From: a virus
Lineage: Duplodnaviria; Heunggongvirae; Uroviricota; Caudoviricetes
Length of the DNA stretch: 46,540 nucleotides
Reading direction: 5' to 3' (one strand)
Virus record (IMG/VR): IMGVR_UViG_2645727604_000006
The first letter of the stretch is position 1. Each line of letters opens with the position of its first letter. The position numbers and the translations under genes were made by a program. Below the pieces are notes generated by a model that did no database searches, was not told where the DNA came from, and worked only from the letters and a program-made list of their open reading frames with translations. Positions 1,796 to 26,356 of the stretch are shown piece by piece.

Positions 1796-2704
1796 GTGTT
1801 AGTCAACGTTAAAAACGTCAAACAGATTTTTATCAATCTGAAGGCCACCTTCCAGAAAGCCTTTGACCAGTCGCCAACTGACTGGCAGAAGGTGGCAATG
1901 GAAGTGCCATCAAACGGCAAGGAAAACGACTACAGCTGGTTAAGTCGTTTCCCGAAAATGCGCGAGTGGATTGGTGACAAGGTCGTCAAATCACTGGCGG
2001 CATTTAACTACACCATCCGTAACAAGGACTGGGAAGCCACGGTTGAAGTCGATCGTAACGACATCGAGGACGACCAGATTATGGGCTATGCCCTTCAGGC
2101 GAAAGGGGCCGGACAGTCGGCAGCAGAGCTACCGGCAGATATTGTGGCGTCCCTTATCAGTAACGGTTTTACCAATCCCTGTTACGACGGTCAGATGTTC
2201 TTTGATACCGACCACCTGGTCGCCGGTAAATCGGTGTCCAACAAAGGCACCAGAAAACTCAAAGTGGGGTCGCTTGCCGAGGCGAAAGCCTCCTACGGTG
2301 CCGCTCGTACGGCCATGCGCAGCCTGAAAGATGACGAAGGCGCATCCCTCAAAATTCGCCCGAATCTGCTGGTTGTGCCACCGGCGCTGGAGGATGACGC
2401 GAACTACCTGATGACCGCCGAGAAGTTCCCGGACGGTACGCCGAACCCGTACCGCAATACCGCCGAAGTGCTGGTGATGCCGGAGCTGGCGTCGGATTCT
2501 GCGTGGTTCCTGTTTGACACCACCAAACCGGTGAAACCGCTGATTTATCAGTTGCGTAAAAAGCCGGTTTTTGTGGAGCAGACGGACTATAACAGCGACA
2601 ACGTGTTCAAACGTAAGAAGTTCCTGTTTGGTGCTGAAGCGCGCTGTAACGGCGGTTACGGCTTCTGGCAGATGGCATTTGGTTCTGATGGTACGACGGA
2701 GTAA
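1796..2704 (+). CDS. Mu-like major head subunit (gpT family)
   Basis: 302-aa ORF, GTG start 5 nt after AAGGAG. Size, position after I/Z and sequence character match Mu-like major head subunits. Confidence 0.7.
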   Translation: MLVNVKNVKQIFINLKATFQKAFDQSPTDWQKVAMEVPSNGKENDYSWLSRFPKMREWIGDKVVKSLAAFNYTIRNKDWEATVEVDRNDIEDDQIMGYALQAKGAGQSAAELPADIVASLISNGFTNPCYDGQMFFDTDHLVAGKSVSNKGTRKLKVGSLAEAKASYGAARTAMRSLKDDEGASLKIRPNLLVVPPALEDDANYLMTAEKFPDGTPNPYRNTAEVLVMPELASDSAWFLFDTTKPVKPLIYQLRKKPVFVEQTDYNSDNVFKRKKFLFGAEARCNGGYGFWQMAFGSDGTTE

Positions 2705-2707
2705 TGC

Positions 2708-3040
2708 ATGGAAAAGGTGATTGAAATTACCGCCCGCCGTGAGGGTTTTCGCCGCTGCGGTGTGGCACACAGTGCAACCACGAAGGCATGGCCGGTGGAT
2801 GCGTTCACCCCGGAACAGCTGGCGGTGTTGAAGGCTGACCCCATGCTGATTGTGGTGGAGCGCGATAAAGCGTCCGGTCAGAACGACGCGGCCCGGGGTG
2901 ATGAACTGGCCGCACAGCTGGATGCCGAGCGTCAGAAAGTCAGCGAACTGACGGCGCAGCTGGAAGAAGAACGCCGGAAGGTCCAGGACCTGACTGCGGA
3001 GCTTAAAGCGGCGAAGAAAGCGGACAAGAAGGAGAAGTAA
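2708..3040 (+). CDS. Mu-like virion protein with coiled-coil C-terminus
   Basis: 110-aa ORF with a C-terminal heptad-like stretch ELAAQLDAERQKVSELTAQLEEERRKVQDLTAELKAAKK. Lies in the Mu gp35-gp38 position. Confidence 0.45.
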   Translation: MEKVIEITARREGFRRCGVAHSATTKAWPVDAFTPEQLAVLKADPMLIVVERDKASGQNDAARGDELAAQLDAERQKVSELTAQLEEERRKVQDLTAELKAAKKADKKEK

Positions 3041-3043
3041 CCC

Positions 3044-3475
3044 ATGTCTTACGCCACACCGGAACAGTTCATCAGGGCGTTCAGTGAACGCGAGGCGTGC
3101 ACACTGACGGATGAAGAGATGACCGGGCTTATCAACGAGGAAAAGCTGGCCTCCGCGCTTGCGCGTGCCAGTGCCCAGATTGATGGCTATCTGGTGGGGC
3201 GTTACCGGACCCCGTGGCCTGACAGCCCGGGGATTCTGGTGGGTTACTGCTGCGATATCGCCCGTTATCACCTGGCGACCGATTACCGTATCTGCTCAGA
3301 AGAAATTCAGATGCGCTACCGGGACGCCATCCGCTTTCTGGAGAAAGTCGCGGCAGGACAAATCAACCTCGGGCGGGATACGTCCGGCAGCGTGATCCCG
3401 TCATCGTCACAGGTGCGTATCCGCTCCGGCTCCCGTCAGTTCGGGCGTGAGTCCACGCGGGGAGGTGCATTCTGA
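3044..3475 (+). CDS. Mu gp36-like head-tail protein (DUF1320-like)
   Basis: 143-aa ORF, ATG after AAGGAG; synteny with the Mu late region. Confidence 0.5.
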   Translation: MSYATPEQFIRAFSEREACTLTDEEMTGLINEEKLASALARASAQIDGYLVGRYRTPWPDSPGILVGYCCDIARYHLATDYRICSEEIQMRYRDAIRFLEKVAAGQINLGRDTSGSVIPSSSQVRIRSGSRQFGRESTRGGAF

Positions 3476-3528
3476 TTACTGAAATTGAACGGGCGCTGGT
3501 TGAACGTCTGCGTTGTGGTCTGGGGAAA

Positions 3529-4110
3529 ATGGTGCGGGAAGTCCGCACCTATGCAGGTGAACTGGATGAAGACCCGGGCCGGATTGTTCGCAGCCTTCCG
3601 GCAGTCTGGGTGACGTTCGGCGGCATCGCGAAAACCGAACGCTATTCCACGTCACGCCGGAAATACATTGCCACCGGACGCTTTGTGGTTGTGGTGGGTG
3701 ATTACAACACCCGCAGCGAACAAAGCGCCAGACAGGGAGGCACCGTCCGGGATGAGGTCGGTACAAACCTGCTGGTTGAATCCGTCCGTCGCCTGCTGAC
3801 CGGTCAGGATTTGGGGCTGGAGATTGATTATTTCGAACCCGGGCGTGTCAGGACGCTGTTTAACACCGGCGTGGCAGAGCGGGCAATGTCCGTGTTTGCC
3901 TGTGAGTTTGATACCCGCTGGGTGGAGCACGCGCTGGAGAACGGCAAATGGCCGGAGCGCGGTGCAGAAGCGGATATGGCTTTCAACCGTTACCACGGCC
4001 GTCTGTCAGACCCCGACCCGGATTTACTGCGAATTGGTACGCAATACGGCGCAGATATCTGTGGTCTGGATGAATTAAGAGAGCAACAGCATGAACAAAA
4101 TGAAGGTTAA
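3529..4110 (+). CDS. Mu gp37-like protein (DUF1834-like); true start probably upstream
   Basis: The reading frame stays open back to 3469 and encodes ITEIERALVERLRCGLGKMVRE, which looks protein-like. GGAGGTG sits at 3461-3467, so a non-ATG start (CTG 3472 or ATT 3475) overlapping the upstream stop is possible. The first ATG/GTG is at 3529. Confidence 0.5.
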   Translation: MVREVRTYAGELDEDPGRIVRSLPAVWVTFGGIAKTERYSTSRRKYIATGRFVVVVGDYNTRSEQSARQGGTVRDEVGTNLLVESVRRLLTGQDLGLEIDYFEPGRVRTLFNTGVAERAMSVFACEFDTRWVEHALENGKWPERGAEADMAFNRYHGRLSDPDPDLLRIGTQYGADICGLDELREQQHEQNEG

Positions 4111-8950: not shown

Positions 8951-10299
8951 TGGGCTGGGCTGAAAACCTGCAAAACGCCTCCTTTCGTGGCGTGCAGTTT
9001 GATGTACTGAACACGGATGAACAAATCAGCCGCGACCATGCGGTCTATGAATACCCGTTTGTTGACGGGGCGGATTTGCACGACCTCGGGCGCAAGGCGC
9101 GACCGTTCCGCATGACGGCGTTCCTGTGGGGGGAGTATTACGAATATAAACTCGAAAAGCTGATCGCCGCCCTGGACGAAGGCGGCGATGGTGAGCTGAT
9201 TCACCCGGTTTACGGCTCCGTACCGTCGGTGATTGTGACCGGCTACAGCATTCGCCATGACGCAGAAAGCCCGGACAGCTGCACCATCGACATGAGCTTT
9301 CTGGAGAACCGCACCGGTAGCGCGTTGTTCAGCACCCCGTTACCGGAGCTGTTCGCGCAACAGTTGTTTGATGAACTGGACACTTTACAGGCGCGGTTAA
9401 GTGATTTTTTTGATGCCGTTGCTGCACCTTTAAATACCGTTAACAGCATGATTAAAAAAGCCCAGACAGTGCGTGCCACACTGGTGAATACCCTGCTGTC
9501 TTTCAAAAGTGATTTTGTCTCCACTGTCGATAATATCGTGTCACTGGCAGGCGAACCCGGAAAATTTATCAATGAACTGGCAGAGGTGCTGGAAATCCAC
9601 ACATCAGATGTCGGGCAACCGGTGCCGGTTCTGCAACGTGTTGATTCTGCCACCCGGACCGGGTTGGCAGGAGAGACGACCGTCGCCAGTTCTGCGACAG
9701 TGATGAACTGCTGGAATAAGGTCATCACTGATATGGATGAATTTGTTGCGCTGCCTGTTGCCCTGGTCAGTGGCGATAAAGTACCGGAGGTGGTACTTCC
9801 TGCGGATGCCTCGCCAGACGATGTGCAGGATGTGAAAGCAGTTTACGCAACACAGGCCGCATCTGAACTGGCCAGTGTTGCAATGGCGATACTGGTTGAT
9901 GATGCGCAGTCAGAACAGCTTATACCGGCGGATATCGGGCGACTGGTCGGGGATGTGCGCACCCGCTTACAGGCTGCCATCACGCTGTTCCGTGAACGCT
10001 ATGAAGGCGAACGCGAACGGATAACCGAAACCGCATCACCGCTGGGGCTGATGTACCCGGAAATCATTCAGAGCATGAAAAACGTGGCGGCATCCGTGCA
10101 GGATGTCGGCCTGCTGGTTCTGTCACGCCGCCCACCGCTGACGCAGAAACAGGTGCAGGCGGACAGCTGTCTGCTGTTGCTGGCGTGGCAGTGGTACGGT
10201 GATTACAGTCGTGCGGCAGAACTGCAACGTCTGAACCCGCAGCTGCGTGACCCGAACAACATAACCGCCGGGGTGGTCATTAATGCCTACGCAAAATAA
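8950..10299 (+). CDS. Mu gpN-like DNA circulation protein
   Basis: 449-aa ORF directly after the tape measure gene (ATG overlaps its stop); the N-terminus matches the Mu N family pattern. Confidence 0.65.
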   Translation: MGWAENLQNASFRGVQFDVLNTDEQISRDHAVYEYPFVDGADLHDLGRKARPFRMTAFLWGEYYEYKLEKLIAALDEGGDGELIHPVYGSVPSVIVTGYSIRHDAESPDSCTIDMSFLENRTGSALFSTPLPELFAQQLFDELDTLQARLSDFFDAVAAPLNTVNSMIKKAQTVRATLVNTLLSFKSDFVSTVDNIVSLAGEPGKFINELAEVLEIHTSDVGQPVPVLQRVDSATRTGLAGETTVASSATVMNCWNKVITDMDEFVALPVALVSGDKVPEVVLPADASPDDVQDVKAVYATQAASELASVAMAILVDDAQSEQLIPADIGRLVGDVRTRLQAAITLFRERYEGERERITETASPLGLMYPEIIQSMKNVAASVQDVGLLVLSRRPPLTQKQVQADSCLLLLAWQWYGDYSRAAELQRLNPQLRDPNNITAGVVINAYAK

Positions 10300-11494
10300 C
10301 GAAGACAAAATCAGCCTGGTCATTGCCGGAAGGTCGCATTCTGACTGGAACAGTTATCGTATTGACAGCGATTTCCTGAAAGCTGCCGACGGCTGGCAGC
10401 TTCAGCTGGGGCTGCCTGAAAAGGTGTTCCCGGCGGATATCGTCCGGGGCGCACAAATCCGGTTGCAGGTGGGAGACGAAACGGTGCTCAGTGGGCGCAT
10501 AGACAGCGTGCGCCGCAGTGTATCCCGTCAGAGCTGCACGCTGACCCTGTCCGGGCGTGATGATGCCGCCATCCTGGTGGACTGTGCCGCGCCAGTGTTC
10601 AGCGCCAACCAGCTGACGCTGGACGAGGTCATCGACAGGATTGTCAGACCGCTGGGGATACAGCGCATCCGTATTCAGGCGTCCGGTGTGTCACGTAATG
10701 ACAAAGTCGTTATTGAGCCGGGGATGCGTGCGTGGGATGCACTGGCCAAAGCTGCCGCCGGTCGCGGCTTATGGCCGTGGTTTGAGCCTGACGGGACGCT
10801 GGTTGTGGGTGGCCCTGACTACACCACCACGCCGGTGGATACGCTGATTCTGAAGCTGAACGGCACCGGGAACAACGTGATGGAGCTGGACGATACCCGG
10901 TCCATTAACGGCTGTTTCTCCGAACTTACTGTGCTGGCCCAGAGCCACGCCCGCCGCGCAGACAGCAAGAAACAGGTGGCCGTGGTGCCGCTGGATATCT
11001 GGAACGAGGACGGCAGCGTGCGCACATTGTCCGGGCAGGACAGCGGTAATACGGACAGTGGCCAGACAGGCATTCATAACATGAAAGCCGTTGCCACCGA
11101 CCCCACCGTGGATTATTACCGCCCGCAGATAATCACCCAGGGCGACACCAGCAATCTGGAGCAAGTGAACTGGCGCGCAAAAAAAATGATGAGTGATGCC
11201 CGCCTGTCGGGGCTGGATATCGTCGCGCTGGTTGCAGGTCATCGCACGGCAGATGGTGTTCTGTGGCAGCCCGGCCAGCGGGTGCGGATTGTCAGCGAAC
11301 TCCACGGCATTGATGCCATCTTTTTCCTGATGGGGCGTGAGTTCAGCGGAGGCCGGAACGGGCAGACAACCCGGCTCCGCTTTAAGGAGGACGGCGTGTG
11401 GATACCTGATGCCTTCCCGCGCGAGAAGAAACGCCATCACCGCAGGGGCAAAAAGAAAAAAGAGGTCGCCATTGTTAAGGTCTGGGAGAAATGA
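10283..11494 (+). CDS. baseplate hub / tail protein (Mu gpP-like, P2 gpD-like)
   Basis: 403-aa ORF in the Mu P position. Confidence 0.65.
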   Translation: MPTQNNEDKISLVIAGRSHSDWNSYRIDSDFLKAADGWQLQLGLPEKVFPADIVRGAQIRLQVGDETVLSGRIDSVRRSVSRQSCTLTLSGRDDAAILVDCAAPVFSANQLTLDEVIDRIVRPLGIQRIRIQASGVSRNDKVVIEPGMRAWDALAKAAAGRGLWPWFEPDGTLVVGGPDYTTTPVDTLILKLNGTGNNVMELDDTRSINGCFSELTVLAQSHARRADSKKQVAVVPLDIWNEDGSVRTLSGQDSGNTDSGQTGIHNMKAVATDPTVDYYRPQIITQGDTSNLEQVNWRAKKMMSDARLSGLDIVALVAGHRTADGVLWQPGQRVRIVSELHGIDAIFFLMGREFSGGRNGQTTRLRFKEDGVWIPDAFPREKKRHHRRGKKKKEVAIVKVWEK

Positions 11495-12144
11495 TGTGGG
11501 ACAAAGTTAATCAGCGCGTACAGCAGGCACTGGCCGCCGTTCGCCAGGCATTCAGGGTGGTGACCGGTACGGTGGACAGTTCGACCAAAGTACAGCTGCT
11601 TCAGCTTAACGGGCTGGCAGGCGAACAGCTGGACGGTGCGGAGTATTTTCAGCATTACGGCCTCACCACATCCCCGCCGCCCGGCTCAATGGGTATTGCC
11701 GTTCCGCTGAACGGCAATACCTCCCATACTGTCGTGGTGGCCACAGAGCACGGCGCATATCGTCTGACGGAACTGAAACCCGGGGAAGTGGCCCTGTATA
11801 CCGATGAAGGCGCGAAAATCGTACTGAAGCGCGGACGGGTTATTGAAACCGAATGTGACGTTTATCGCGTGAAATGCAAACGCTACGAGGTTGAGGCAGA
11901 GGAGAACGCCACATTCACGACACCGTTACTGACAGCCAGTGACAGGCTGACGGTGGAAGGCAAAATCACCGGCAACGGTGGCATGGCCATCAGTGGGGGC
12001 AAGGGATACACTGCCACCTTTGAAGGCAATATCAACCATGTGGGTGGAGTGATTACCTCCGTTGACGTCACCATTAATGGCGTTAAAATCGGAACGCACA
12101 AACATCCAACCCCACACGGCATGTCTGACACGCCGGTTAATTAA
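11491..12144 (+). CDS. baseplate assembly/spike protein (Mu gp45-like, P2 gpV-like)
   Basis: 217-aa ORF with a glycine-rich beta region, in the Mu Q position. Confidence 0.6.
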   Translation: MMWDKVNQRVQQALAAVRQAFRVVTGTVDSSTKVQLLQLNGLAGEQLDGAEYFQHYGLTTSPPPGSMGIAVPLNGNTSHTVVVATEHGAYRLTELKPGEVALYTDEGAKIVLKRGRVIETECDVYRVKCKRYEVEAEENATFTTPLLTASDRLTVEGKITGNGGMAISGGKGYTATFEGNINHVGGVITSVDVTINGVKIGTHKHPTPHGMSDTPVN

Positions 12145-12197
12145 GTGCTGAACACCCTCACCTGATTCTGACCTGTCCATGCTGCCAGACTGGCGGC

Positions 12198-12548
12198 ATG
12201 GACCAGACGATTTCACCTGCAACCGGCGACTACGAACGCCGTCGGATTTATACCCTTCATAACGCGGTTTATCTGCGACTGGCGACGCCGCTTGGCAGTT
12301 ACTGGGCGGATGCGTCGCTGGGGTCACGCCTGCACGAGCTGAAGCGGGAAAAAGACGTTTCCCGTGTTCATAAGCTTGCGGCGCAGTATGCCAGCCAGGC
12401 ACTTCAGCCCCTGCTCGATGACGGGCGGGCAAAATCCATTACCGTTGACACAAAACCGGGGCAGCGCGGCTGGTTGTTGCTGTTAATCACCGTCACGGAT
12501 AACGCGGGCACACCGCAGACGTTTGAACACCCTGTGAGGATTATGTAA
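12198..12548 (+). CDS. baseplate protein (Mu gp46-like, P2 gpW-like)
   Basis: 116-aa ORF between the spike and J-like baseplate genes. Confidence 0.55.
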   Translation: MDQTISPATGDYERRRIYTLHNAVYLRLATPLGSYWADASLGSRLHELKREKDVSRVHKLAAQYASQALQPLLDDGRAKSITVDTKPGQRGWLLLLITVTDNAGTPQTFEHPVRIM

Positions 12549-13627
12549 TGCCGTTTCCTGTTCCGGGCGTTGCTGAAAACACAGAACGCCAGCTACGTGA
12601 TATCGCTAACGCCCTGCCGGGCGAAACCATCGACACCGGCGCTGACAGCGATTACCGCATTCGTGCAAATGCCGTATCCGGCGTGGCGGACGGACTGTAT
12701 ATGCATCAGGGGTGGATACTCCGTCAGGTGTTTCCTGATACGGCAGACCCTGAATATCTGGAGTTGCACTGCCGCACGCGCAATGTTTTTCGTAAAAAAG
12801 CAACGGCCTCATCCGGTCCGGCAGTGATTACCGGCACACCCGGTAAAACGCTGCCAGCCGGTGCGGAAATTCGTGGTGAAGGTGTCAGCGTGGCCACCGC
12901 AGCAGACTGCACCGTCGGTGATGAAGGCAGCGCAGAGGTGACGGTAAAAAGCACTGCCACGGGTGCACAGACGAATGCATCCACGACTCAGACGGCAACG
13001 CTGGTCAGCCCACCTGAAGGCATCAACAGCACGGTGACGATTAAATCCCTGACCGGCGGAACGGACAGGGAAAGCGACGCCGACCTGCTGGCGCGTTATC
13101 TGGATATTCTGCGCAGGCCGCCCGCTGGCGGTAATAAATATGATTACAAACGCTGGGCGCTGGAAGTGGATGGCGTTACGTCTGCGTATGTGGAGCCGTT
13201 GCGTCGTGGACTGGGGACGGTTGATGTGGCCATTACGTCAGCCAATGACCTCCCTTCGCAGGAACTGATTAATGCCGTGCTGGCACATATTGAGGAAGTC
13301 CGCCCGGTGACAGCGAAGGACACGATGGTGCTGGCCCCGACGAAAAAAGCCGTTGATTTCGTTGTCCGGGTAAAAACCAGTGGTCTTACTGTTGAACAGA
13401 TAAAACCACAGATAACTGAAGTTATCACGGATTTTATGAACCGGCTGGAGCCGGGGCAGGAATTAATTATTTCACAACTGGAAACTCAGATTTCATTAAT
13501 TTCTGGCGTCAGTGACCGGCGAATTATTATGCCGTCAGATAATGTAAAAGCAGTTGTCAATGAATCCACATGGGAGTGGCTGCGTCCGGGGAGTATTGAT
13601 ATCCAGCCATTTCCCCGGGAGAGTTAA
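12548..13627 (+). CDS. baseplate J-like protein (Mu gp47-like)
   Basis: 359-aa ORF whose ATG overlaps the previous stop; typical baseplate wedge size and position. Confidence 0.7.
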   Translation: MPFPVPGVAENTERQLRDIANALPGETIDTGADSDYRIRANAVSGVADGLYMHQGWILRQVFPDTADPEYLELHCRTRNVFRKKATASSGPAVITGTPGKTLPAGAEIRGEGVSVATAADCTVGDEGSAEVTVKSTATGAQTNASTTQTATLVSPPEGINSTVTIKSLTGGTDRESDADLLARYLDILRRPPAGGNKYDYKRWALEVDGVTSAYVEPLRRGLGTVDVAITSANDLPSQELINAVLAHIEEVRPVTAKDTMVLAPTKKAVDFVVRVKTSGLTVEQIKPQITEVITDFMNRLEPGQELIISQLETQISLISGVSDRRIIMPSDNVKAVVNESTWEWLRPGSIDIQPFPRES

Positions 13628-13630
13628 TAC

Positions 13631-14203
13631 ATGAATACGGTTGATTTATTTCGTGCCATGTTACCACCGGTCAGCTATGACCCGAACGGGAAATATATTT
13701 CAGCAGAACTGAACGCAGAAGCAGCCATTATGGATGAAGTAAAAGCGTCAGCTGCACGAGTGCTTGCATCTGTCACACCATTTTACGCATCCATGACGCT
13801 GTCTGACTGGGAACGAGTGTATGGAGTAATACCCCGCGACGGTGCCACACAGCAGGAACGCCGAGAAAATATTCTTATAAAGATGGCTGCAACTGGTGGG
13901 TTATCTATCCCTTATTTTAAACAACTTGCAGCCAGCCTCGGGTACACCATAACAATTACTGAACTTCATCCATTCAGAGCGGGGATAAACCGATGTGGTG
14001 ATCGTCTCTATATAACAGATGCCCGATGGATTTGGCAGGTTAATGTCACAGGAAGCAGAACGCCAGCCTACAGATTCAGAACCGGAGTATCTGCTGCCGG
14101 GGAGCCGTTACTTTCCTTTGGTGCCCCTGTACTGGAAGAAACATTTAAAGACCTTAAACCCGCTTTTACTTATTGCCATTTCACATATAAGGAGGAGCAG
14201 TAA
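13631..14203 (+). CDS. tail protein (Mu gp48-like, P2 gpI-like)
   Basis: 190-aa ORF between the baseplate J gene and the tail fibre gene. Confidence 0.6.
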
Positions 14204-18032: not shown

Positions 18033-18847
18033 GTATGGAGCTGATGGTTAAAGCGATGAAAATTCGAGTGGGTAATCCATTGCGAAAACTGGTTCTGATC
18101 AAGCTGGCTGATAATGCCAGCGATCAGGGGGAGTGCTGGCCCAGCTACCAGCATATTGCTGACCAGTGCGAGATTAGCAAACGTTCTGTGATGAATCATA
18201 TTGCGGCCCTTTGTGAGTCCGGGCTGGTAAAAAAAGTCACCCGGAAAGGTGAAAAAGGTAACTCAAGTAATATCTATCTCCTTCATCTGGATGGTGCAGG
18301 AGATTCACTAGGGGGTAGTGCAAATAATTCACTATCTGGCGCAGCAAATTCACCAGGTAGTGCAGGAGTTGCACCAGGGGGTAGTGCAGGAGATTCACCC
18401 AGAACCAGTCACTCTTTTGAACCAGTCAAAGAACCAGTCAATGAACCAATAGCTGTTGGTGCATCAGTTGATGAGTCTGTGCGAGTTCGTTCAAACCGAC
18501 CGGAATACTCTCCGGAGTTTGAGCAGGCATGGCTGGCATATCCCAAACGTGCTGGTGGCAATTCAAAATCTGCAGCCTTCAAAGCCTGGAAAGCCCGTTT
18601 GAATGAGGGGGTAAACCCCGAAACCATGCTGGAAGGTGTGAAACGCTACGCGGGCTGGGTATCTGCGATGGGTAACAGCGGCACACAATTTGTGAAACAG
18701 GCTGTCACGTTCTTTGGTCCGGATCGTCATTTCGAAGAATCCTGGGAAGTTCCTGCGGTATCTGCAGCCAGACGTGAGGACCCGTACTTCAAAGCCAGTT
18801 ACGACAACGTGGACTACAGCCAGATCCCGGCAGGATTCAGGGGGTGA
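18029..18847 (+). CDS. putative replication initiator / winged-helix DNA-binding protein with an internal repeat-encoded linker
   Basis: The N-terminus (LRKLVLIKLADNASDQGECWPSYQHIADQCEISKRSVMNHIAALCESGLVKK) looks like a wHTH. A low-complexity linker is encoded by DNA repeats. The C-terminal domain contains AWLAYPKR. The architecture is analogous to lambda O with ori iterons inside the gene. Confidence 0.45.
   Translation: MSMELMVKAMKIRVGNPLRKLVLIKLADNASDQGECWPSYQHIADQCEISKRSVMNHIAALCESGLVKKVTRKGEKGNSSNIYLLHLDGAGDSLGGSANNSLSGAANSPGSAGVAPGGSAGDSPRTSHSFEPVKEPVNEPIAVGASVDESVRVRSNRPEYSPEFEQAWLAYPKRAGGNSKSAAFKAWKARLNEGVNPETMLEGVKRYAGWVSAMGNSGTQFVKQAVTFFGPDRHFEESWEVPAVSAARREDPYFKASYDNVDYSQIPAGFRG
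18293..18440 (+). repeat. iteron-like direct repeats inside the initiator gene; candidate origin
   Basis: GGTGCAGGAGATTCAC at 18293-18308 and 18383-18398. GTAGTGCA three times. ATTCAC four times. GAACCAGTCA at 18402, 18419 and 18431. Confidence 0.4.
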
Positions 18848-18849
18848 TC

Positions 18850-19338
18850 ATGAGTCTTTTGAATGAAGTTCAGAAATACATTGAAGCCCATCCGGGGTGT
18901 ACTTCCGGAGACATTGCGGATGCTTTTGCAGGTTACTCACGGCAGCGCGTTCTGCAGTATGCAAGCAAGTTACGTCAGAGTGGGCGTGTGGCTCACCGTT
19001 GTGAAGGAGATACACGCAGACATTTCCCGCGCCTGACTGAGAGAGCGCAGGAGCTGGAACCACAACCAGTTCGTGAAACCAGACCTGTGCGCAATTTCTA
19101 TGTCGGCACTAACGACCCGCGGGTGATTTTGTGCCTGACCCGCCAGGCGGAAGAACTGGAGTCAAGGGGCTTATACCGTCGTGCTGCAACCGTGTGGATG
19201 GCGGCATTCCGTGAAAGCCACTCCCAGCCAGAACGAAACAATTTTCTGGCACGTCGTGAGCGGTGCTTACGGAAAAGCAGCAAGCGCGCTGCATCGGGTG
19301 AAGAGTGGTATCTGTCAGGGAATTACGTGGGGGCTTAA
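18850..19338 (+). CDS. PerC-like (Pch-like) transcriptional regulator with an N-terminal wHTH-like region
   Basis: The C-terminal motif ELESRGLYRRAATVWMAAF...RRERCLRK resembles the PerC family signature (ELESKGLWRRAA.RWL) as recalled. AGGGGG precedes the ATG at 18850. Confidence 0.45.
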   Translation: MSLLNEVQKYIEAHPGCTSGDIADAFAGYSRQRVLQYASKLRQSGRVAHRCEGDTRRHFPRLTERAQELEPQPVRETRPVRNFYVGTNDPRVILCLTRQAEELESRGLYRRAATVWMAAFRESHSQPERNNFLARRERCLRKSSKRAASGEEWYLSGNYVGA

Positions 19339-19991
19339 TGAGTAATAAATATTGCCGGGCGCTGGTGGAACTGCGGAACAAACCAGCCCATGAACTGAAG
19401 GAAGTGGGCGATCAGTGGCGCACGCCGGATAACATTTTCTGGGGAATTAACACCCTGTTTGGCCCGTTTGTCCTGGATCTGTTTACTGACGGTGATAACG
19501 CCAAATGTACCGCGTATTACACGGCGGAAGACAACGCGCTGGCGCATGACTGGTCAGAACGTCTTGCGGAGCTTAAAGGTGCTGCCTTTGGTAATCCCCC
19601 ATACAGCCGCGCCAGTCAGCATGAGGGGCAATACATCACCGGCATGCGTTACATCATGAAACATGCCAGTGCCATGCGTGATAAAGGCGGGCGCTATGTT
19701 TTCCTGATCAAAGCTGCCACCTGCGAAGTGTGGTGGCCGGAAGATGCAGATCATATTGCTTTTATTCGCGGGCGTATTGGTTTTGAACTGCCTGCCTGGT
19801 TTATCCCGAAAGATGAGAAGCAGGTGCCGACAGGCGCTTTCTTCGCTGGTGCTATTGCTGTTTTCGACAAGACCTGGAAGGGACCGGCAATCAGCTACAT
19901 CGGGCGCGATGAACTTGAGGCATGTGGTGAGGCGTTTCTGGCGCAGGTTCGCCAGCAGGCAGAAAAACTGGTCAGGGAGATGGCGGCATGA
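19338..19991 (+). CDS. phage N6-adenine DNA methyltransferase (phage Dam-like)
   Basis: Catalytic motif FGNPPY; about 218 aa; nin-region position. The ATG at 19338 overlaps the upstream TAA. Confidence 0.75.
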   Translation: MSNKYCRALVELRNKPAHELKEVGDQWRTPDNIFWGINTLFGPFVLDLFTDGDNAKCTAYYTAEDNALAHDWSERLAELKGAAFGNPPYSRASQHEGQYITGMRYIMKHASAMRDKGGRYVFLIKAATCEVWWPEDADHIAFIRGRIGFELPAWFIPKDEKQVPTGAFFAGAIAVFDKTWKGPAISYIGRDELEACGEAFLAQVRQQAEKLVREMAA

Positions 19992-20314
19992 CGACGTTAA
20001 CTCAATGCCAGCAGCAGGTGCTGGATATGCTGATTTCTTATCAGAAAGAACGTGGCTTCCCGCCAACCAATCAGGAGGTGGCAACCATGCTGGGATACCG
20101 TTCAGTGAATGCAGCGGTGGAGCATCTTCGCGCACTGGAGAAAAAAGGCGTCATCACGATAAAGCGTGGCGTGGCCCGGGGGATCACGCTTCATACCGCG
20201 GTGAAGGACGACGACAGCGAGGCGGTCGGGATTATCCGCTCACTGCTTGCCGGTGAGGAAAACGCAAGGCTGCGTGCAACCCACTGGTTACATGAGAGAG
20301 GCTTGAAAGCATGA
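19988..20314 (+). CDS. LexA-like DNA-binding domain protein lacking the S24 peptidase domain
   Basis: 108 aa. The N-terminus LTQCQQQVLDMLISYQKERGFPPTNQEVATMLGYRSVNAAVEHLRALEKKGVI resembles the LexA N-terminal wHTH. No Ser/Lys peptidase domain follows. Confidence 0.55.
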   Translation: MTTLTQCQQQVLDMLISYQKERGFPPTNQEVATMLGYRSVNAAVEHLRALEKKGVITIKRGVARGITLHTAVKDDDSEAVGIIRSLLAGEENARLRATHWLHERGLKA

Positions 20315-20700
20315 AGCTGATCCTGCCTTTTCCGCCCAGCGTGAACACGTACTGGCGACACCCCAACAAAGGGGCGTTTGCTGGTAAGAGCCTGATAAGC
20401 TCGGCGGGGCGAAAATTCCAGAGCGCGGCGTGCGCAGCAATAGTTGAGCAGTTACGTCGTCTGCCGAAACCAACGTCGGCACCTGCTTCAGTGGAGATCG
20501 TGTTGTTTCCTCCGGATAACCGGATCCGCGATCTGGACAACTATAACAAGGCGCTGTTTGACGCCCTGACCCATGCGGGTGTGTGGGAAGACGACAGTCA
20601 GGTGAAAAGAATGCTGGTGGAGTGGGGACCGGTTATCCCGAAAGGGAAGGTCGAGATCACTATCAGTAAGTACGAGAAAACGGCGGGTGCAGCCGCCTGA
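20311..20700 (+). CDS. rusA: Holliday junction resolvase RusA
   Basis: 129 aa with LPFPPSVNTYW and DLDNYNKALFDALTHAGVWEDDSQV, the classic RusA signature. Confidence 0.9.
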   Translation: MKLILPFPPSVNTYWRHPNKGAFAGKSLISSAGRKFQSAACAAIVEQLRRLPKPTSAPASVEIVLFPPDNRIRDLDNYNKALFDALTHAGVWEDDSQVKRMLVEWGPVIPKGKVEITISKYEKTAGAAA

Positions 20701-20719
20701 TCAAGAGGAGAAACGAAGT

Positions 20720-21529
20720 ATGAATAATCTGATGGTCATTGATGGTATTGAAGTTCGTCGTGATGCTTATGGGCGTTACAGCCTGAACGATCTGCATCGC
20801 GCAGCAGTAGCATCTGGTGCAAATGCCAGAACCAAGGAGCCGGGAAAGTTTCTTTCCAGCCAACAAACTGTTGAGCTTGTTCATGAATTGACCAACACCC
20901 AGAATTTGGGTGTTGACCCGGTGAGTGTGATTCATGGGGGAAATGAACGGGGAACGTATGTCTGCAAGGAACTGGTGTATGCCTATGCAATGTGGATCAG
21001 CCCGTCATTCCATCTGAAGGTGATCCGTACTTTCGATATGGTAACCAGCGCACCGGAAAAATTATCCGGACAGGCTGCTGACAAGATGCAGGCTGGCGTG
21101 ATCCTGCTGGACTTTATGCGCCGGGAGTTAAACCTGTCTAACTCTTCAGTGCTTGGTGCCTGTCAGAAACTCCAGGAGGCTGTTGGCTTACCGAATCTGG
21201 CACCGCGCTATGCCATTGATGCTCCTGCTGATGCACACGATGGCTCAAGTCGCCCGACACTGTCACTGAGTGCACTGCTGAAACAGTATGGTATACGCCT
21301 GACGGCTAATCAGGCATATCACCAGATGGTGAAACTGGGGATCGTCGAGCAGCGCGAACGATACAGCCGTACCGCGATTAACAACATCAAAAAATTCTGG
21401 TCGCTGACAGCGAAAGGCTGCATGTTCGGCAAGAACATCACCAGTCCCGCAAATCCGCGCGAGACGCAGCCGCATTTCTTCGAATCCCGATTCCCTGAGC
21501 TGTTAAAGCTGCTCGATACCGTTCATTGA
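20720..21529 (+). CDS. KilA-N domain protein (antirepressor-like)
   Basis: The KilA-N core GTYVCKELVYAYAMWISPSFHLKVI is present. GAGGAG lies upstream of the ATG at 20720. Confidence 0.7.
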   Translation: MNNLMVIDGIEVRRDAYGRYSLNDLHRAAVASGANARTKEPGKFLSSQQTVELVHELTNTQNLGVDPVSVIHGGNERGTYVCKELVYAYAMWISPSFHLKVIRTFDMVTSAPEKLSGQAADKMQAGVILLDFMRRELNLSNSSVLGACQKLQEAVGLPNLAPRYAIDAPADAHDGSSRPTLSLSALLKQYGIRLTANQAYHQMVKLGIVEQRERYSRTAINNIKKFWSLTAKGCMFGKNITSPANPRETQPHFFESRFPELLKLLDTVH

Positions 21530-21530
21530 G

Positions 21531-22526
21531 GTGACCGTGAGAGCACTACTGACCCCTGAAATTGCCCCGCGTATGGGGATCGTATTGTTCAGGCCAGGTT
21601 CAGAGCTGATGCCCCTGTTTATGCAGGGGCGTGTCCTGCTGGAGCCTGAGCCGGAGCGTTATTCATCTTTCGCCAGTGGTGCCGTTCCGGCGGCATCACA
21701 ACCGCTGGCGGATGATCCTGCCGTTCGGGCCGTATTCCGCAATGAGGCAGTGATCCGTCGTGCTGGTGGCGTGGAATGTCTTGAAAGCTGGTTACTTCGT
21801 GAAAAAGGCTGCCAGTGGCCTCATTCCGACTGGCACAGCGAGAACATGACCACAATGCGACACGCTCCGGGTGCAATCCGTCTGTGCTGGCACTGCGATA
21901 ACCAGCTGCGCGATCAGTTCACGGAACGGCTGGAATCAATGGCAACGGATAACTGTGCCCGCTGGGTGTTGTCTGTTGTGCGTCGGGATCTCGGTTTTGA
22001 TGACAGTCACGTTGTGACAATGCCGGAACTGTGCTGGTGGCTGATTCGTAATGATCTGGCGGATGCCTTACCGGAAAGTGCAGCCCGTAAGGCACTGAGA
22101 TTACCGAAGCCTGTTGTGCCGTCTGTTACCCGGGAAAGTGACCTTGTGCCTTCGGTTCCTGCCACCAGCATCATCCAGGATAAGGCGAAAAAGGTGCTGG
22201 CGCTGAAAGTGGATCCGGAGTCGCCGGAGTCTTTTATGTTACGCCCAAAACGTCGCCGCTGGGTTAATGAAAAGTACACGCGCTGGGTTAAGACACAGCC
22301 GTGTGCATGTTGTGGAAAGCCCGCTGATGATCCCCACCACCTGATAGGTCACGGTCAGGGTGGAATGGGAACAAAAGCGCATGACCTTTTTGTGTTGCCT
22401 TTGTGCAGAAAGCATCACGACGAGCTGCATGCGGATACCGTGGCATTTGAAGAGAAGTATGGCTCCCAGCTGGAGCTGATATTTCGTTTTATCGATCGTG
22501 CGCTGGCAATTGGCGTGCTGGCCTGA
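21531..22526 (+). CDS. DUF968-like nin-region protein with a C-terminal HNH/zinc-finger-like motif
   Basis: [21 protein letters not shown]...[10 protein letters not shown], i.e. Cys/His clusters typical of DUF968/HNH-like proteins in lambdoid nin regions. GTG start. Confidence 0.55.
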
Positions 22527-22543
22527 TTTTGTGGAGAAAGTTG

Positions 22544-22909
22544 ATGCGTGATATTCAAATGGTTCTTGAACGTTGGGGGGCATGGGTGGCAAATAATCAC
22601 GAGGATGTCACCTGGTCGTCTATTGCTGCAGGATTTAAAGGACTAATCCCTTCAAAAGTAAAATCCCGCCCGCAATGTTGTGACGATGACGCGATGATCA
22701 TTTGTGGATGCATGGCTCGCCTGAAAAAGAACAACAGCGATTTGCACGATTTATTAGTGGATTATTATGTAGGTGGTATGACTTTTATGGCGCTTGCCCG
22801 TAAACATGGGCGTTCTGATTGCTGGGTTGGGCGTTTATTGCAAAAGGCTGAAGGTGTAGTTGATGGCATGTTAATGATGTTAGAAATTGAGCTAGAGATG
22901 GATCGTTAG
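22544..22909 (+). CDS. late-gene antiterminator Q (phage 82/21-type Q family)
   Basis: [26 protein letters not shown]...[19 protein letters not shown]...CWVGRLL resembles the Q82-type family. GGAGAAAG precedes the ATG at 22544. Confidence 0.7.
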
Positions 22910-22951
22910 AAGACCTCTTATTGAGGGGGTAATTGAATCAGTTTAATGTGT

Positions 22952-22991
22952 GGGGAGTCGATTTATTCTCCCCATTTTATTTAATTTATTT
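22952..22991 (+). terminator. hairpin plus T-rich tract downstream of Q; candidate intrinsic terminator on the + strand
   Basis: GGGGAG (22952-22957) pairs with CTCCCC (22968-22973) around a 10-nt loop, followed by ATTTTATTTAATTTATTT. Confidence 0.35.
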
Positions 22992-23436
22992 AAGGTTTTA
23001 ATTCATCAAGACGTTGTTGGATAGTGTTTTTGCTTGCGTTGTCTGTTATAGACATTTGTTGTACTTGCCCCATTGCCATTTGAGTTTCCATCCACATATC
23101 GGCCCACACTTTTGTATCGTTATTAACTTGAGCGATAGTAAATCTGACTTTTGATACCGGGGTTGTTGAATAGGCATTGCCGATTAACATTTGTCCAAAA
23201 ACAGCAGAGCCGCCTTCCAGTTCTTTACCACATATAACACTGCTGTTATCCGCGTTGTAAATTATCAACCCTCTACTATTGCAGTAATTCACAAGGGCAT
23301 CTTTGACTTTATCTTTTGTCGTATTTTGATAAACCCCCTCAGGTTTTCCTGATTGAGTTTTCTTTATCAATGGTACGGAAGAAGTACAACCTGAAATGAT
23401 AGTTGCGCTAAGTAATAGTACAGTCATTTTATTCAT
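22990..23436 (-). CDS. lipoprotein of unknown function (reverse-oriented cargo gene)
   Basis: The N-terminus MNKMTVLLLSATIISGCTSS is a signal peptide with an LSGC-type lipobox. AT-rich compared with flanking phage genes. Opposite strand to the late operon. Confidence 0.6.
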   Translation of the reverse strand: MNKMTVLLLSATIISGCTSSVPLIKKTQSGKPEGVYQNTTKDKVKDALVNYCNSRGLIIYNADNSSVICGKELEGGSAVFGQMLIGNAYSTTPVSKVRFTIAQVNNDTKVWADMWMETQMAMGQVQQMSITDNASKNTIQQRLDELKP

Positions 23437-23491
23437 GTTTCTTATCCATTGTTAAGGGCATACCCACACAATTATTTTTATTGGAGATGAA

Positions 23492-23586
23492 TAATCAACC
23501 GTTTACAATCGTAAAAAATCAAATATGCTGTTAAGAGTGGTTACTTCGCCACACAACTTAAACCCGCCGCTGAGCGGTTTTTTTGT
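23492..23586 (+). promoter_or_regulatory. candidate sigma70 promoter (TTTACA-N16-TATGCT) followed by a short hairpin and T-run; possible PR'/tR'-like unit
   Basis: -35 TTTACA at 23492-23497 and -10 TATGCT at 23514-23519. Hairpin CCGC-TGA-GCGG at 23567-23577 followed by TTTTTTT. The stem is weak (4-5 bp). Confidence 0.25.
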
Positions 23587-23682
23587 ACCTGTAAACCTGG
23601 TGCAGTACAGTAAACACGCTGGTGGTCGTGAATACTGACTTTTTATCTTGCTGGCTTTTTAGACAAGAGTTATTGGTATGTC

Positions 23683-23910
23683 ATGTTAACCAGAAGGGAA
23701 AAAGACATGCTAAAACAGCAAGATATGACAGAAACCGCCGCCGCAGTCCTTCATTTCTTACCTGCTGACAAGTGGGTAACGCCACGCATGATGACGAGAA
23801 CTACCGGAGTAAGCGAAGCCCGGTGCCAGTTAATACTGACTCAGTTAGTTCTGGCGGGTCTGGCGAAGGATAACGGCGGGTACGGGAATAAATTCAGACG
23901 CTGCCAGTAA
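23683..23910 (+). CDS. small putative winged-helix DNA-binding protein
   Basis: 75 aa (alternative ATG at 23707). AVLHFLPADKWVTPRMMTRTTGVSEARCQLILTQLVLAGLA is compatible with a small wHTH regulator of the PapI/FaeA type. Directly upstream of the methyltransferase gene. Confidence 0.35.
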   Translation: MLTRREKDMLKQQDMTETAAAVLHFLPADKWVTPRMMTRTTGVSEARCQLILTQLVLAGLAKDNGGYGNKFRRCQ

Positions 23911-24060
23911 TGGCGGTTTCCTGCTGTGAAAATGGGCGGCTGGTGGGTGTTGGTAGCACCTGCCAGCCATTCGCTCATGCTTACTGGTCACAAGCGAACC
24001 ACGGCCCACTGCTTTAGCGCAAAAGCAGAGTGAGCCTACCAGAGTTACGCTTACTGATCC

Positions 24061-25113
24061 ATGAAAAATACTGTAAAAATAAACAGTGTTGATTTAATCA
24101 ACGCTGATTGCCTGCATTTTATTCAGTCCCTGCCTGATGATTCCATTGACCTGATTGTTACCGATCCGCCGTACTTCAAGGTGAAACCCAACGGCTGGGA
24201 CAATCAGTGGAAAGGGGACGAAGATTACCTTAAGTGGCTGGACCACTGTCTGGCCCAGTTCTGGCGGGTGTTAAAACCTGCCGGAAGCCTTTACCTGTTC
24301 TGTGGGCATCGCCTGGCATCTGATATTGAGATCATGATGCGTGAACGTTTCAACGTGCTTAACCATATCATCTGGGCGAAGCCGTCCGGACGTTGGAATG
24401 GGTGTAATAAAGAAAGTCTGCGTGCATATTTTCCAGCCACAGAGCGCGTTCTGTTTGCTGAACATTACCAGGGGCCATATCGCGGCAAAAGTGACGGCTA
24501 TGCGGCAAAAGAAAGGGAACTCAAACAGCACATAATGGCACCGCTGATTTCGTATTTCAGGGATGCTCGTGCCGAACTGGGTATAACGGCAAAACAAATT
24601 GCCGAAGCCACAGGTAAGAAAAATATGGTTTCCCACTGGTTTGGTGCCAGTCAGTGGCAGTTGCCGAATGAGGCTGACTATCGGAAGTTACAGGCACTGT
24701 TTTCCCGTATAGCGGCAGAGAAGTTTCAGGAACAACAACTGGAACAACCACACCACCAGCTGGTGGCATCTTATGATTCACTGAATCGCAAATATTCTGA
24801 ATTGCTGGATGAGTTTAAATCTCTCCGGCGCTATTTCTCCGTATCAGTCTCCGTGCCTTATACCGATGTCTGGATGCATAAACCCGTTCAGTTCTACCCG
24901 GGTAAACATCCGTGTGAGAAACCTGCGGATATGCTCCGGCAAATAATCAATGCCAGTAGTCGACCTGGTGATCTGGTTGCTGATTTTTTTATGGGATCCG
25001 GTTCCACAATAAAAGCAGCAATGGCGCTGGGGCGTCGGGCCTTAGGTGTTGAGCTTGAGTCAGAGCGGTTTAACCAGACAGTGAAAGAGATAAACGAGCT
25101 GGTGGGGAAATAA
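24061..25113 (+). CDS. beta-class DNA N6-adenine (or N4-cytosine) methyltransferase, orphan
   Basis: Catalytic motif IV LIVTDPPYF near the N-terminus and SAM-binding motif I FFMGSGST near the C-terminus, the beta-class order. No adjacent endonuclease-like ORF. Confidence 0.8.
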   Translation: MKNTVKINSVDLINADCLHFIQSLPDDSIDLIVTDPPYFKVKPNGWDNQWKGDEDYLKWLDHCLAQFWRVLKPAGSLYLFCGHRLASDIEIMMRERFNVLNHIIWAKPSGRWNGCNKESLRAYFPATERVLFAEHYQGPYRGKSDGYAAKERELKQHIMAPLISYFRDARAELGITAKQIAEATGKKNMVSHWFGASQWQLPNEADYRKLQALFSRIAAEKFQEQQLEQPHHQLVASYDSLNRKYSELLDEFKSLRRYFSVSVSVPYTDVWMHKPVQFYPGKHPCEKPADMLRQIINASSRPGDLVADFFMGSGSTIKAAMALGRRALGVELESERFNQTVKEINELVGK

Positions 25114-25116
25114 TCT

Positions 25117-25144
25117 GGTGGCCACGTAGGTGGCCTTTTTATTT
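25117..25144 (+). terminator. intrinsic terminator after the methyltransferase gene
   Basis: GGCCAC-GTAG-GTGGCC perfect 6-bp stem (25120-25135) followed by TTTTTATTT. Confidence 0.5.
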
Positions 25145-25179
25145 CCATTACACAGCACCCGCATCTGCGAGGTGGGGTT

Positions 25180-25395
25180 ATGAAATCCATGGATAAGTTA
25201 ACAACGGGTGTCGCCTATGGCACCTCAGCAGGTAGTGCCGGGTACTGGTTTTTACAGTTGCTCGATAAAGTCACGCCCTCACAGTGGGCGGCAATAGGTG
25301 TGCTGGGTAGTCTGGTATTTGGCTTGCTGACGTATCTGACAAACCTTTATTTCAAGATTAAAGAAGATAAGCGTAAGGCTGCGAGAGGTGAATAA
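25180..25395 (+). CDS. S: class II holin, S21-type pinholin with dual start
   Basis: [71 protein letters not shown] is near-identical in pattern to phage 21 S. Met1 and Met4 give the antiholin/holin dual start. Confidence 0.85.
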
Positions 25396-25892
25396 TGTCG
25401 CCATCATTACGCAAGGCTGTTGCTGCTGCTATTGGTGGTGGGGCTGTTGCCATAGCGTCTGTGCTCATCACTGGTCCGAGTGGTGACGATGGCCTGGAAG
25501 GTGTCAGCTACATACCATACAAAGATATCGTTGGCGTATGGACTGTATGCCACGGACACACCGGAAAAGACATCATGCTAGGTAAAACGTATACCGAAGC
25601 AGAATGCAAAGCCCTCCTGAATAAAGACCTTGCCACGGTCGCCAGACAAATTAACCCGTACATCAAAGTCGATATACCGGAAACAACGCGCGGCGCTCTT
25701 TACTCGTTCGTCTACAACGTGGGTGCTGGCAATTTCAGAACATCGACGCTTCTTCGCAAAATAAACCAGGGCGATATCAAAGGCGCATGTGACCAGCTAC
25801 GTCGCTGGACATACGCTGGCGGTAAGCAATGGAAAGGCCTGATGACTCGTCGTGAGATTGAGCGTGAAGTCTGTTTGTGGGGGCAACAATGA
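25395..25892 (+). CDS. R: SAR endolysin (phage 21 R-like lysozyme with an N-terminal signal-anchor-release domain)
   Basis: N-terminal Gly/Ala-rich SAR domain [18 protein letters not shown], then a lysozyme domain with the catalytic region; very similar to R21 as recalled. Confidence 0.85.
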
Positions 25893-26356
25893 GCAGAGTA
25901 ACCGCGATTATCTCCGCTCTGGTTATCTGCATCATCGTCTGCCTGTCGTGGGCGGTCAATCATTACCGTGATAACGCCATCGCCTACAAAGAACAGCGTG
26001 ATAAAAAAGTCAGTGAGCTGAAGCAGGCGACCGCCACCATCGCTGACATGCAGCAGCGTCAGCGTGATGTTGCTGCGATCGATGCAAAATACACGAAGGA
26101 GTTAGCCGATGCGAAAACTGAAAATGAAACTCTGCGCGCTGATGTTGCCGCTGGTCGTAAGCGCCTGCGGGTCAATGCCAGTTGCTCCGCAGCCGTGCGT
26201 GAAGCCACCGGACCCACCAGCATGGATAATGCAACCAGCCCCCGACTGGCAGACACCGCTGAACGGGATTATTTCACCCTCAGAGAACGGTTGATGACGA
26301 TGCAGAAGCAACTGGAAGGGGCGCAGGAATATATCCGCACCCAGCGCATTAAGTAG
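25889..26356 (+). CDS. Rz: i-spanin Rz
   Basis: N-terminal transmembrane segment ([18 protein letters not shown]) then a coiled-coil periplasmic domain. The ATG at 25889 overlaps the endolysin stop. Confidence 0.8.
26109..26294 (+). CDS. Rz1: o-spanin Rz1, embedded in the +1 frame of Rz
   Basis: [16 protein letters not shown] lipobox followed by a proline-rich mature region, entirely inside Rz. Confidence 0.75.

Follow-up and report, generated by a model that had tools for sequence, protein, structure and literature searches.

The window analysed here, that is the whole 46,540-nucleotide stretch of the IMG/VR virus record IMGVR_UViG_2645727604_000006 (Caudoviricetes), carries on its plus strand two open reading frames (ORFs), designated ORF1 and ORF2, which encode DNA methyltransferases and lie at the positions given for them in a preliminary description made from the sequence alone (Table 1). 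It is likely that they specify two independent orphan N6-adenine methyltransferases, an early enzyme of the phage Dam family (ORF1), with GATC as its likely target, and a late enzyme without sequence specificity (ORF2). The late gene would then encode a non-specific adenine methyltransferase of the M.EcoGII type and not a second site-specific enzyme, which is a useful correction.

The two enzymes are unrelated at the sequence level, as the preliminary description had proposed: they belong to different Pfam families (PF05869 and PF01555), their motifs occur in a different order, and no similarity between them was detected by BLASTP (best E 5.6). Neither matches PF02086 (MethyltransfD12), the family of the orthodox alpha-class Dam of E. 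coli and T4, in which FxGxG is N-terminal, a recognition domain central and DPPY C-terminal; judged by its sequence, "Dam-type" fits ORF1 solely in the sense of the PF05869 family name. The catalytic motifs appear intact in both proteins, and neither would be expected to be catalytically dead, an outcome named beforehand as evidence against the proposal. No restriction endonuclease gene adjoins either of them, the neighbours of ORF1 being genes for a PerC-like protein, a protein with a LexA DNA-binding domain and RusA, and those of ORF2 an ORF of 75 amino acids (aa) and the holin gene; both methyltransferases are therefore orphans, and not part of a restriction-modification system.

ORF2 scores 145.9 bits with the PF01555 N6_N4_Mtase model, for which the cut-off is 26.7 (E 2.2e-42). 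Its motif IV (DPPY, residues 35-38) precedes a central target-recognition domain (TRD), which is followed by motif I (FxGxG, residues 310-314), the order that defines the beta class; the description of ORF2 as a beta-class DPPY enzyme was thus correct. The 221 positions of the Pfam model span residues 29-341, and the extra middle segment, described earlier as a large insertion, is real, but it is no oddity, as it consists of the normal TRD of the family and its linkers. In M.EcoGII the TRD is a four-helix bundle with a helix-turn-helix (residues 160-237), accompanied by a charged linker (PMC11551740). The corresponding region of ORF2 aligns to it without gaps and with many invariant residues, as in GKK-M-HWF-SQWQLP, while the rest of the segment is made up of the flanking linkers, at about residues 135-159 and 238-259.

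The alignment of ORF2 with M.EcoGII covers 349 residues, contains 2 gaps and gives 81% identity; full-length identities are 89% with Anc291, a reconstructed ancestor, 71% with the engineered SUPREM and 64% with PhiOS31_p25 of a Serratia phage. The M.EcoGII sequence was taken from Supplementary Table S1 of PMC11551740, as transcribed text with a few artefacts; it is 93.4% identical to the protein of phage 1720a-02, in agreement with the similarity reported by Murray et al. (PMC5778455). Among phage proteins, the "putative DNA methylase" of cdtI has the same amino-acid sequence as ORF2 (100% identity), and NP_543076 of phiP27 shares 82.6% identity with ORF2. On the basis of these alignments, ORF2 is a member of the M.EcoGII clade.

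Every tested member of this clade lacks sequence specificity, and for this reason ORF2 very probably methylates adenine in any sequence context, having no motif of its own. M.EcoGII, from a prophage of E. coli O104:H4 C227-11, modifies adenine in any context, up to 99% of deoxyadenosines in vitro, and M.EcoGI and M.EcoGII are silent in the lysogen and deleterious if constitutively expressed (PMC5778455). Anc291 and SUPREM methylate both DNA and RNA in vitro, and SUPREM was found by nanopore sequencing to be largely non-sequence-specific (PMC11551740). PhiOS31_p25 protects DNA against HinfI, PfeI, SchI, Hin1II, Tru1I, TasI and MboI, several unrelated restriction enzymes sensitive to N6-methyladenine; the same study names NP_543076 of phiP27 and "many Escherichia phages" as sources of probable non-specific homologues (PMC7556043). 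PhiARM81ld_p56 from Aeromonas is another adenine methyltransferase with relaxed specificity. Homologues 92-99% similar to M.EcoGI and M.EcoGII are listed as "nonspecific" and unexpressed in methylome papers on O111 and ST131 strains; for a 99% identical enzyme, M.EcoMV in ST131, silence in the lysogen and toxicity on constitutive expression are likewise reported. No published activity was found in the literature consulted for the exact ORF2 sequence.

ORF1 matches PF05869, "DNA N-6-adenine-methyltransferase (Dam)", with an E value of 1.1e-44 (152.5 bits, cut-off 28.1), and the NCBIfam equivalog TIGR01712, "phage N-6-adenine-methyltransferase", with 251.3 bits, far above the cut-off of 97.05. 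Its NPPY motif (residues 86-89) lies about 36 residues past an LD-type motif I, the stretch that separates the two contains no recognition domain, and the gene is located between the replication genes and Q, so that its placement as a Dam-type NPPY enzyme in the nin region stands. T1, VT2 and HP1 Dam are all three members of PF05869. Residues D25, W27, T29, P30, L46, D47 and N86-P-P-Y89 are invariant between ORF1 and these three enzymes, the N-terminal D-x-W-x-T-P and LD motifs being intact, and 20 of the 20 columns that are invariant among the three are also kept in ORF1. The closest relatives are genes annotated dam in SfV, SfII and cdtI, together with mEp460_045, the measured identity being 97-98% for SfII, cdtI and mEp460_045; sb44 of ST64B (69%) and the enzymes of Chi-like phages (about 45%) are more distant.

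By comparison with relatives, ORF1 most likely methylates GATC, possibly with somewhat relaxed specificity, and this assignment is moderately probable. VT2 Dam (M.EcoVT2Dam) is listed with GATC in REBASE-based tables; in M.Btr190III, which shares 35% identity with T1 Dam, methylation of GATC is accompanied by substantial off-target activity; PamA of S. aureus, a PF05869-like protein with an NPPY motif, renders DNA sensitive to DpnI, and its methylase activity alters host virulence. Several points weigh against the assignment. The identity of ORF1 to T1, VT2-Sakai and HP1 Dam is just 24-28% in the alignment, a 10-residue insertion follows NPPYS, and the PF05869 score is 152 bits, compared with 218-251 bits for the other three; in view of this divergence, the specificity of ORF1 could differ from GATC. 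No specificity data were found in the literature for enzymes of the SfV/SfII/cdtI/ST64B/Chi-like clade, and DpnI or MboI assays on relatives cannot alone separate GATC-specific from relaxed enzymes.

Structural comparison was of little help, as phmmer found no solved structure related to ORF1, and a profile of ORF1 with T1, VT2 and HP1 Dam found none even at E <= 10. An AlphaFold2 model built with 16 close homologues was unusable (predicted local distance difference test score averaging 40, predicted template modelling score 0.30); the homologues in the alignment are all at least 76% identical, too shallow a set for a good model.

An alternative for ORF1 is that it is not a GATC enzyme, either because specificity in its divergent SfV/cdtI/ST64B/Chi-like clade differs or is strongly relaxed, or because its role is mainly regulatory rather than anti-restriction, the regulation being of phage development or of host gene expression from the prophage. 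The distance from T1, VT2 and HP1 Dam favours it, as does the fact that the insertion adjoins motif IV; marked off-target activity is already seen in M.Btr190III, and PamA offers an example of a related methylase that acts on host virulence. Moreover, ORF1 seems largely redundant for protection if ORF2 is non-specific, and it is dispensable, being cleanly absent from one third of close relatives. Against this, the TIGR01712 cut-off is far exceeded, all of the 20 columns common to the tested GATC enzymes are retained, and GATC is methylated by every tested member found of the family. We regard this alternative as somewhat unlikely. A narrower form of it, in which the enzymes of the SfV/cdtI/ST64B clade have a specificity or a substrate of their own and act early in a non-redundant way, for instance by tagging DNA during replication or by controlling genes of phage or host, seems quite unlikely; if true, such a separate early role would explain the retention of ORF1 beside a late non-specific enzyme.

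The distribution of GATC was considered as a clue to the specificity of ORF1 and found to be uninformative. The window contains 140 GATC sites, with an observed to expected ratio of 0.62 overall and of 0.83 in the early region; the depletion is mild and common to several other palindromes. Spacing is uneven: 17 sites fall within 2 kb (20000-22000, the RusA, KilA-N and DUF968 genes), compared with a mean of about 6 per 2 kb, and none is present in a 4.8-kb stretch of the myovirus baseplate region (9162-14000).

The features around the two genes are reported in Table 1. Their order corresponds to the standard lambdoid early-right and late layout, with ORF1 in a nin-type region and ORF2 between Q and the holin gene, in the late region to which it had been assigned; a lambda-like terminase, portal and capsid module and a siphovirus tail follow the lysis genes. 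In TAATG, the start codon of ORF1 shares one base with the stop codon of the PerC-like gene, and in ATGA the stop codon of ORF1 overlaps the next ATG; because of these overlaps with both neighbours, ORF1 is taken to be embedded in a delayed-early operon. Many database entries of 380 aa join PF06069 (PerC) and PF05869 (Dam), either as genuine fusions or through errors of gene calling; the window has two separate genes (18844-19991) with the one-base overlap just mentioned.

Table 1. Features of the region containing the two methyltransferase genes (positions in the window; AdoMet, S-adenosylmethionine)
Feature	Position	Strand	Evidence or remark
Rha-like regulator	16678		
O-like replication protein	18029		
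PerC-like protein	18844		directly 5' of ORF1
ORF1, orphan phage Dam-family N6-adenine DNA methyltransferase (predicted), 217 aa	19338..19991	+	PF05869 / TIGR01712
ORF1 motif IV codons, N86-P-P-Y89	19593..19604	+	invariant vs T1, VT2, HP1 Dam and 16 close homologues
LexA-DNA-binding-domain protein	19988		directly 3' of ORF1
RusA	20311		
KilA-N protein	20687		
DUF968/HNH protein	21531		
Antiterminator Q; boundary between early-right genes and late operon	22529..22909	+	PF06530 Phage_antitermQ, E 2.1e-51; PHROG 79
Minus-strand ORF between Q and 75-aa ORF	22990-23436	-	
Putative late promoter and hairpin/T-run, pR'/tR'-like	23502..23585	+	consensus scan and sequence
75-aa ORF directly 5' of ORF2	23683..23910	+	PHROG 331, no Pfam match
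ORF2, orphan beta-class N6-adenine methyltransferase (predicted), M.EcoGII clade, 350 aa	24061..25113	+	PF01555; PHROG 67
ORF2 motif IV codons, D35-P-P-Y38	24163..24174	+	invariant vs M.EcoGII, SUPREM, PhiOS31_p25
ORF2 target-recognition domain, about residues 160-237	24538..24771	+	limits from M.EcoGII (PMC11551740)
ORF2 AdoMet-binding motif I codons, F310-M-G-S-G314	24988..25002	+	invariant vs M.EcoGII, SUPREM, PhiOS31_p25
Terminator-like hairpin (GGCCACGTAGGTGGCC and T-run), 7 nucleotides past ORF2 stop, before holin	25120..25145	+	pattern match only
Lysis cassette: holin 25180, lysozyme 25395, Rz-like 25877	25180..26356	+	ORFs directly 3' of ORF2

The position of ORF2 between Q and holin fits late-only expression. 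A promoter-like sequence, TTTACA-16-TATGCT (23502-23529), was identified by consensus scan between Q and ORF2, and is followed by a short G+C-rich hairpin (23566-23578) with a run of seven T residues, ending at 23585. The order is therefore Q, pR'-like promoter with hairpin, 75-aa ORF, ORF2, a second hairpin and holin. The resemblance to lambda pR' and tR' would make ORF2 the second ORF of a Q-antiterminated late transcript; the promoter and the terminators were called from consensus matches alone, a point against this reading. The arrangement recurs in other phages. The methylase gene lies directly upstream of holin in mEp460, OS31, Yersinia P840 and PhiR46_1, all of which are annotated with the order methylase, holin, lysozyme, Rz, and Q is found upstream of the methylase in mEp460, OS31 and phiP27. 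In phiP27 an intact methylase gene lies between Q and holin, ahead of tRNA genes and stx2e.

A related observation comes from about 100 Stx2a-converting phages, in which an ORF2-type gene is reduced to its last 35 codons, with Q on one side and the tRNA/stx2 genes on the other. The remnant is 65.7% identical (20457-20561 of the VT2-Sakai locus); taken with the intact gene before stx2e in phiP27, it indicates that the stx cassette shares, or has displaced the occupant of, the same late slot.

The 75-aa ORF that precedes ORF2 recurs with 100% conservation in mEp460 and shares 53% identity with P27p23 of phiP27, annotated as "TrmB family transcriptional regulator" and located at the equivalent position. 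The idea that it regulates a toxic methylase in a dedicated, Com-like manner was considered and rejected: tblastn found no match for it at E <= 1e-3 in the OS31, P840, PhiR46_1 and VHML loci, so that it is not an obligate partner of ORF2.

These features suggest the following scheme, in which specificities are read from relatives, and timing from position and from the promoter and terminator patterns. ORF1, translationally coupled within a delayed-early nin-type operon, would be made earlier than ORF2 and would probably complete GATC methylation on rapidly replicating DNA; about half of the GATC sites in lambda are noted to be left unmethylated by host Dam when the DNA is packaged (PMC3299994). 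Production of ORF2, the second ORF on the Q-dependent late transcript and preceded there by the 75-aa ORF, would start only upon induction; in the lysogen, in which its activity would do harm, ORF2 would stay silent. The enzyme would densely methylate progeny DNA before packaging, and so may blunt many Type I, II and III systems sensitive to N6-methyladenine (m6A) in the next host, the price being sensitivity to m6A-dependent nucleases.

If both specificities are as proposed, the targets of the two enzymes would be nested, not distinct, and layering would be a matter of timing, not of motif. The preliminary description had deduced two distinct modified motifs and layered protection against host restriction. 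The first of these claims finds no support, as ORF2 falls within a non-specific clade whose target set would contain that of ORF1; since the targets of ORF2 would include those of ORF1, the situation comes close to the case of both enzymes targeting the same motif, which had been named as contrary to the claim. Of the second, what holds is that both are intact orphan enzymes, for which anti-restriction is the accepted reading.

Expression in this particular copy has to be considered separately, as the window is composite. From position 1 to about 16,571 it contains a head protease and a myovirus-type tail module, with sheath, tape measure, baseplate, tail fibres and, at the end, inverted fibre/assembly genes. 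Lambdoid sequence starts abruptly at about 16,672 and continues through 46540; no integrase, cI repressor, cro or N gene is present in the window upstream of this start. No genome among 5,426 complete ones of E. coli, and no phage record, spans the junction at about 16.6 kb, and the homology of the left part to other genomes ends where those carry a Hin/Gin-type invertase gene. Either the assembly is a chimera, or the element has been truncated or has recombined; with a true truncation, this copy may express neither methyltransferase, which speaks against the scheme proposed above.

Both genes might then be inert relics, residing in a truncated or misassembled lambdoid segment that lacks early promoters, with neither enzyme being made. 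The direct contact of the lambdoid start with the tail module, the lack of any genome that spans the junction and the frameshifted state of ORF2 in the best-matching E. coli genome, UTME-12, are in favour of this possibility. It is nevertheless unlikely, because both ORFs are full length with all motifs intact, ORF2 is 100% identical to its counterpart in the inducible phage cdtI, and, downstream, Q and the genes for lysis are present and the lambda-like morphogenesis module is complete; the window, moreover, may simply be an assembly chimera.

That each enzyme recognises a discrete motif of its own, providing two site-specific marks against two sets of restriction enzymes, is highly improbable: the two do come from different families and order their motifs differently, about 19% of positions are not shared between ORF2 and M.EcoGII, including some within the TRD, and the Prokaryotic Genome Annotation Pipeline (PGAP) names some copies "site-specific DNA-methyltransferase", but the tested relatives, all without sequence specificity (PMC5778455, PMC11551740, PMC7556043), bracket ORF2 in identity (81%, 89%, 71% and 64%), the 92-99% similar homologues of M.EcoGI and M.EcoGII are predicted to be non-specific in published methylome studies, and a discrete motif would require a gain of specificity within this one sub-lineage.

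Both genes and their pairing have already been described and are common in temperate phages of E. coli and Shigella. DNA of ORF2 is present in 1,266 of the 5,426 complete E. coli genomes, and the whole 5.8-kb module, at a coverage of at least 80%, in 503. The annotations of SfV, cdtI, mEp460, PhiR40_1, PhiR55_1 and Ayreon include both genes, and their order is the same. In the Yersinia phage vB_YenS-P840 the layout with two enzymes recurs, built from strongly diverged genes: a gene of the PF05869 type (1-496 of the locus), 32% identical to ORF1 over the part compared, lies upstream, and an ORF2 homologue (2501-3574 of the locus), 62% identical, is found just before holin.

Pairing was evaluated on 65 IMG/VR contigs in which ORF2 is near-identical and has 6 kb or more of sequence upstream of it. 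ORF1 was found 3.3-7.1 kb upstream of ORF2 in 44 contigs and was absent from the remaining 21; in 19 of the latter, the PerC-like and RusA genes are retained about 327 bp apart, which is the length of the LexA-domain gene that follows ORF1. This clean absence between kept flanks means that ORF1 behaves as an optional 654-bp cassette. The pairing of the two genes is thus neither unusual nor obligatory.

The annotation of the UTME-12 prophage marks the ORF2 homologue (24729-25782 of the locus) as a frameshifted pseudogene, along with several genes for head and tail; ORF2 of the window is intact.

The importance of these results goes little beyond correct annotation. What changes is the expectation for a methylome, namely nothing in the lysogen and dense, context-free m6A in induced phage DNA, and with it the reading of phage resistance to restriction and of phage sensitivity to m6A-dependent nucleases. 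A small puzzle is why many lambdoid phages keep an optional early Dam-family enzyme, the targets of which the late enzyme would seem to cover.

Among known systems, T1, VT2-Sakai (933W-type) and HP1 Dam share with ORF1 the Pfam family, the spacing of about 36 residues between the LD-type motif I and NPPY, the conserved N-terminal D-x-W-x-T-P, the small protein size and the lack of a separate large TRD; the VT2 dam gene also lies in a nin region. ORF1 differs from the VT2 and HP1 enzymes in being 40-45 residues longer, with the insertion after NPPYS and a longer C-terminus. Functional analogues of ORF2 are found in Hia5, Hin1523 and Nma1821 of Mu-like prophages, which are late, normally silent, and methylate most adenines (Drozdz et al. 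2012, PMC3299994); they were proposed as replacements of Mom and as broad anti-restriction devices (PMC3299994). Unlike ORF2, they have the alpha-class order and a Dam/DpnM-like fold, with homology only in the Rossmann core, and occupy the mom position behind a com-like gene. Hia5 and Hin1523 were considered also as relatives of ORF1, and ruled out on account of their class and fold.

PhiOS31_p25 of Serratia phage vB_SspS_OS31 resembles ORF2 in sequence (64% identity) and in the location of its gene directly upstream of holin; its host and sequence are more distant, and the evidence for its activity is protection from restriction, not a methylome. M.EcoGII differs from ORF2 at about 19% of residues, ORF2 being nearer to Anc291 (89%), and is like ORF2 in its length (349-350 aa), N-terminal DPPY, central four-helix-bundle TRD, C-terminal FxGxG and location in a prophage.

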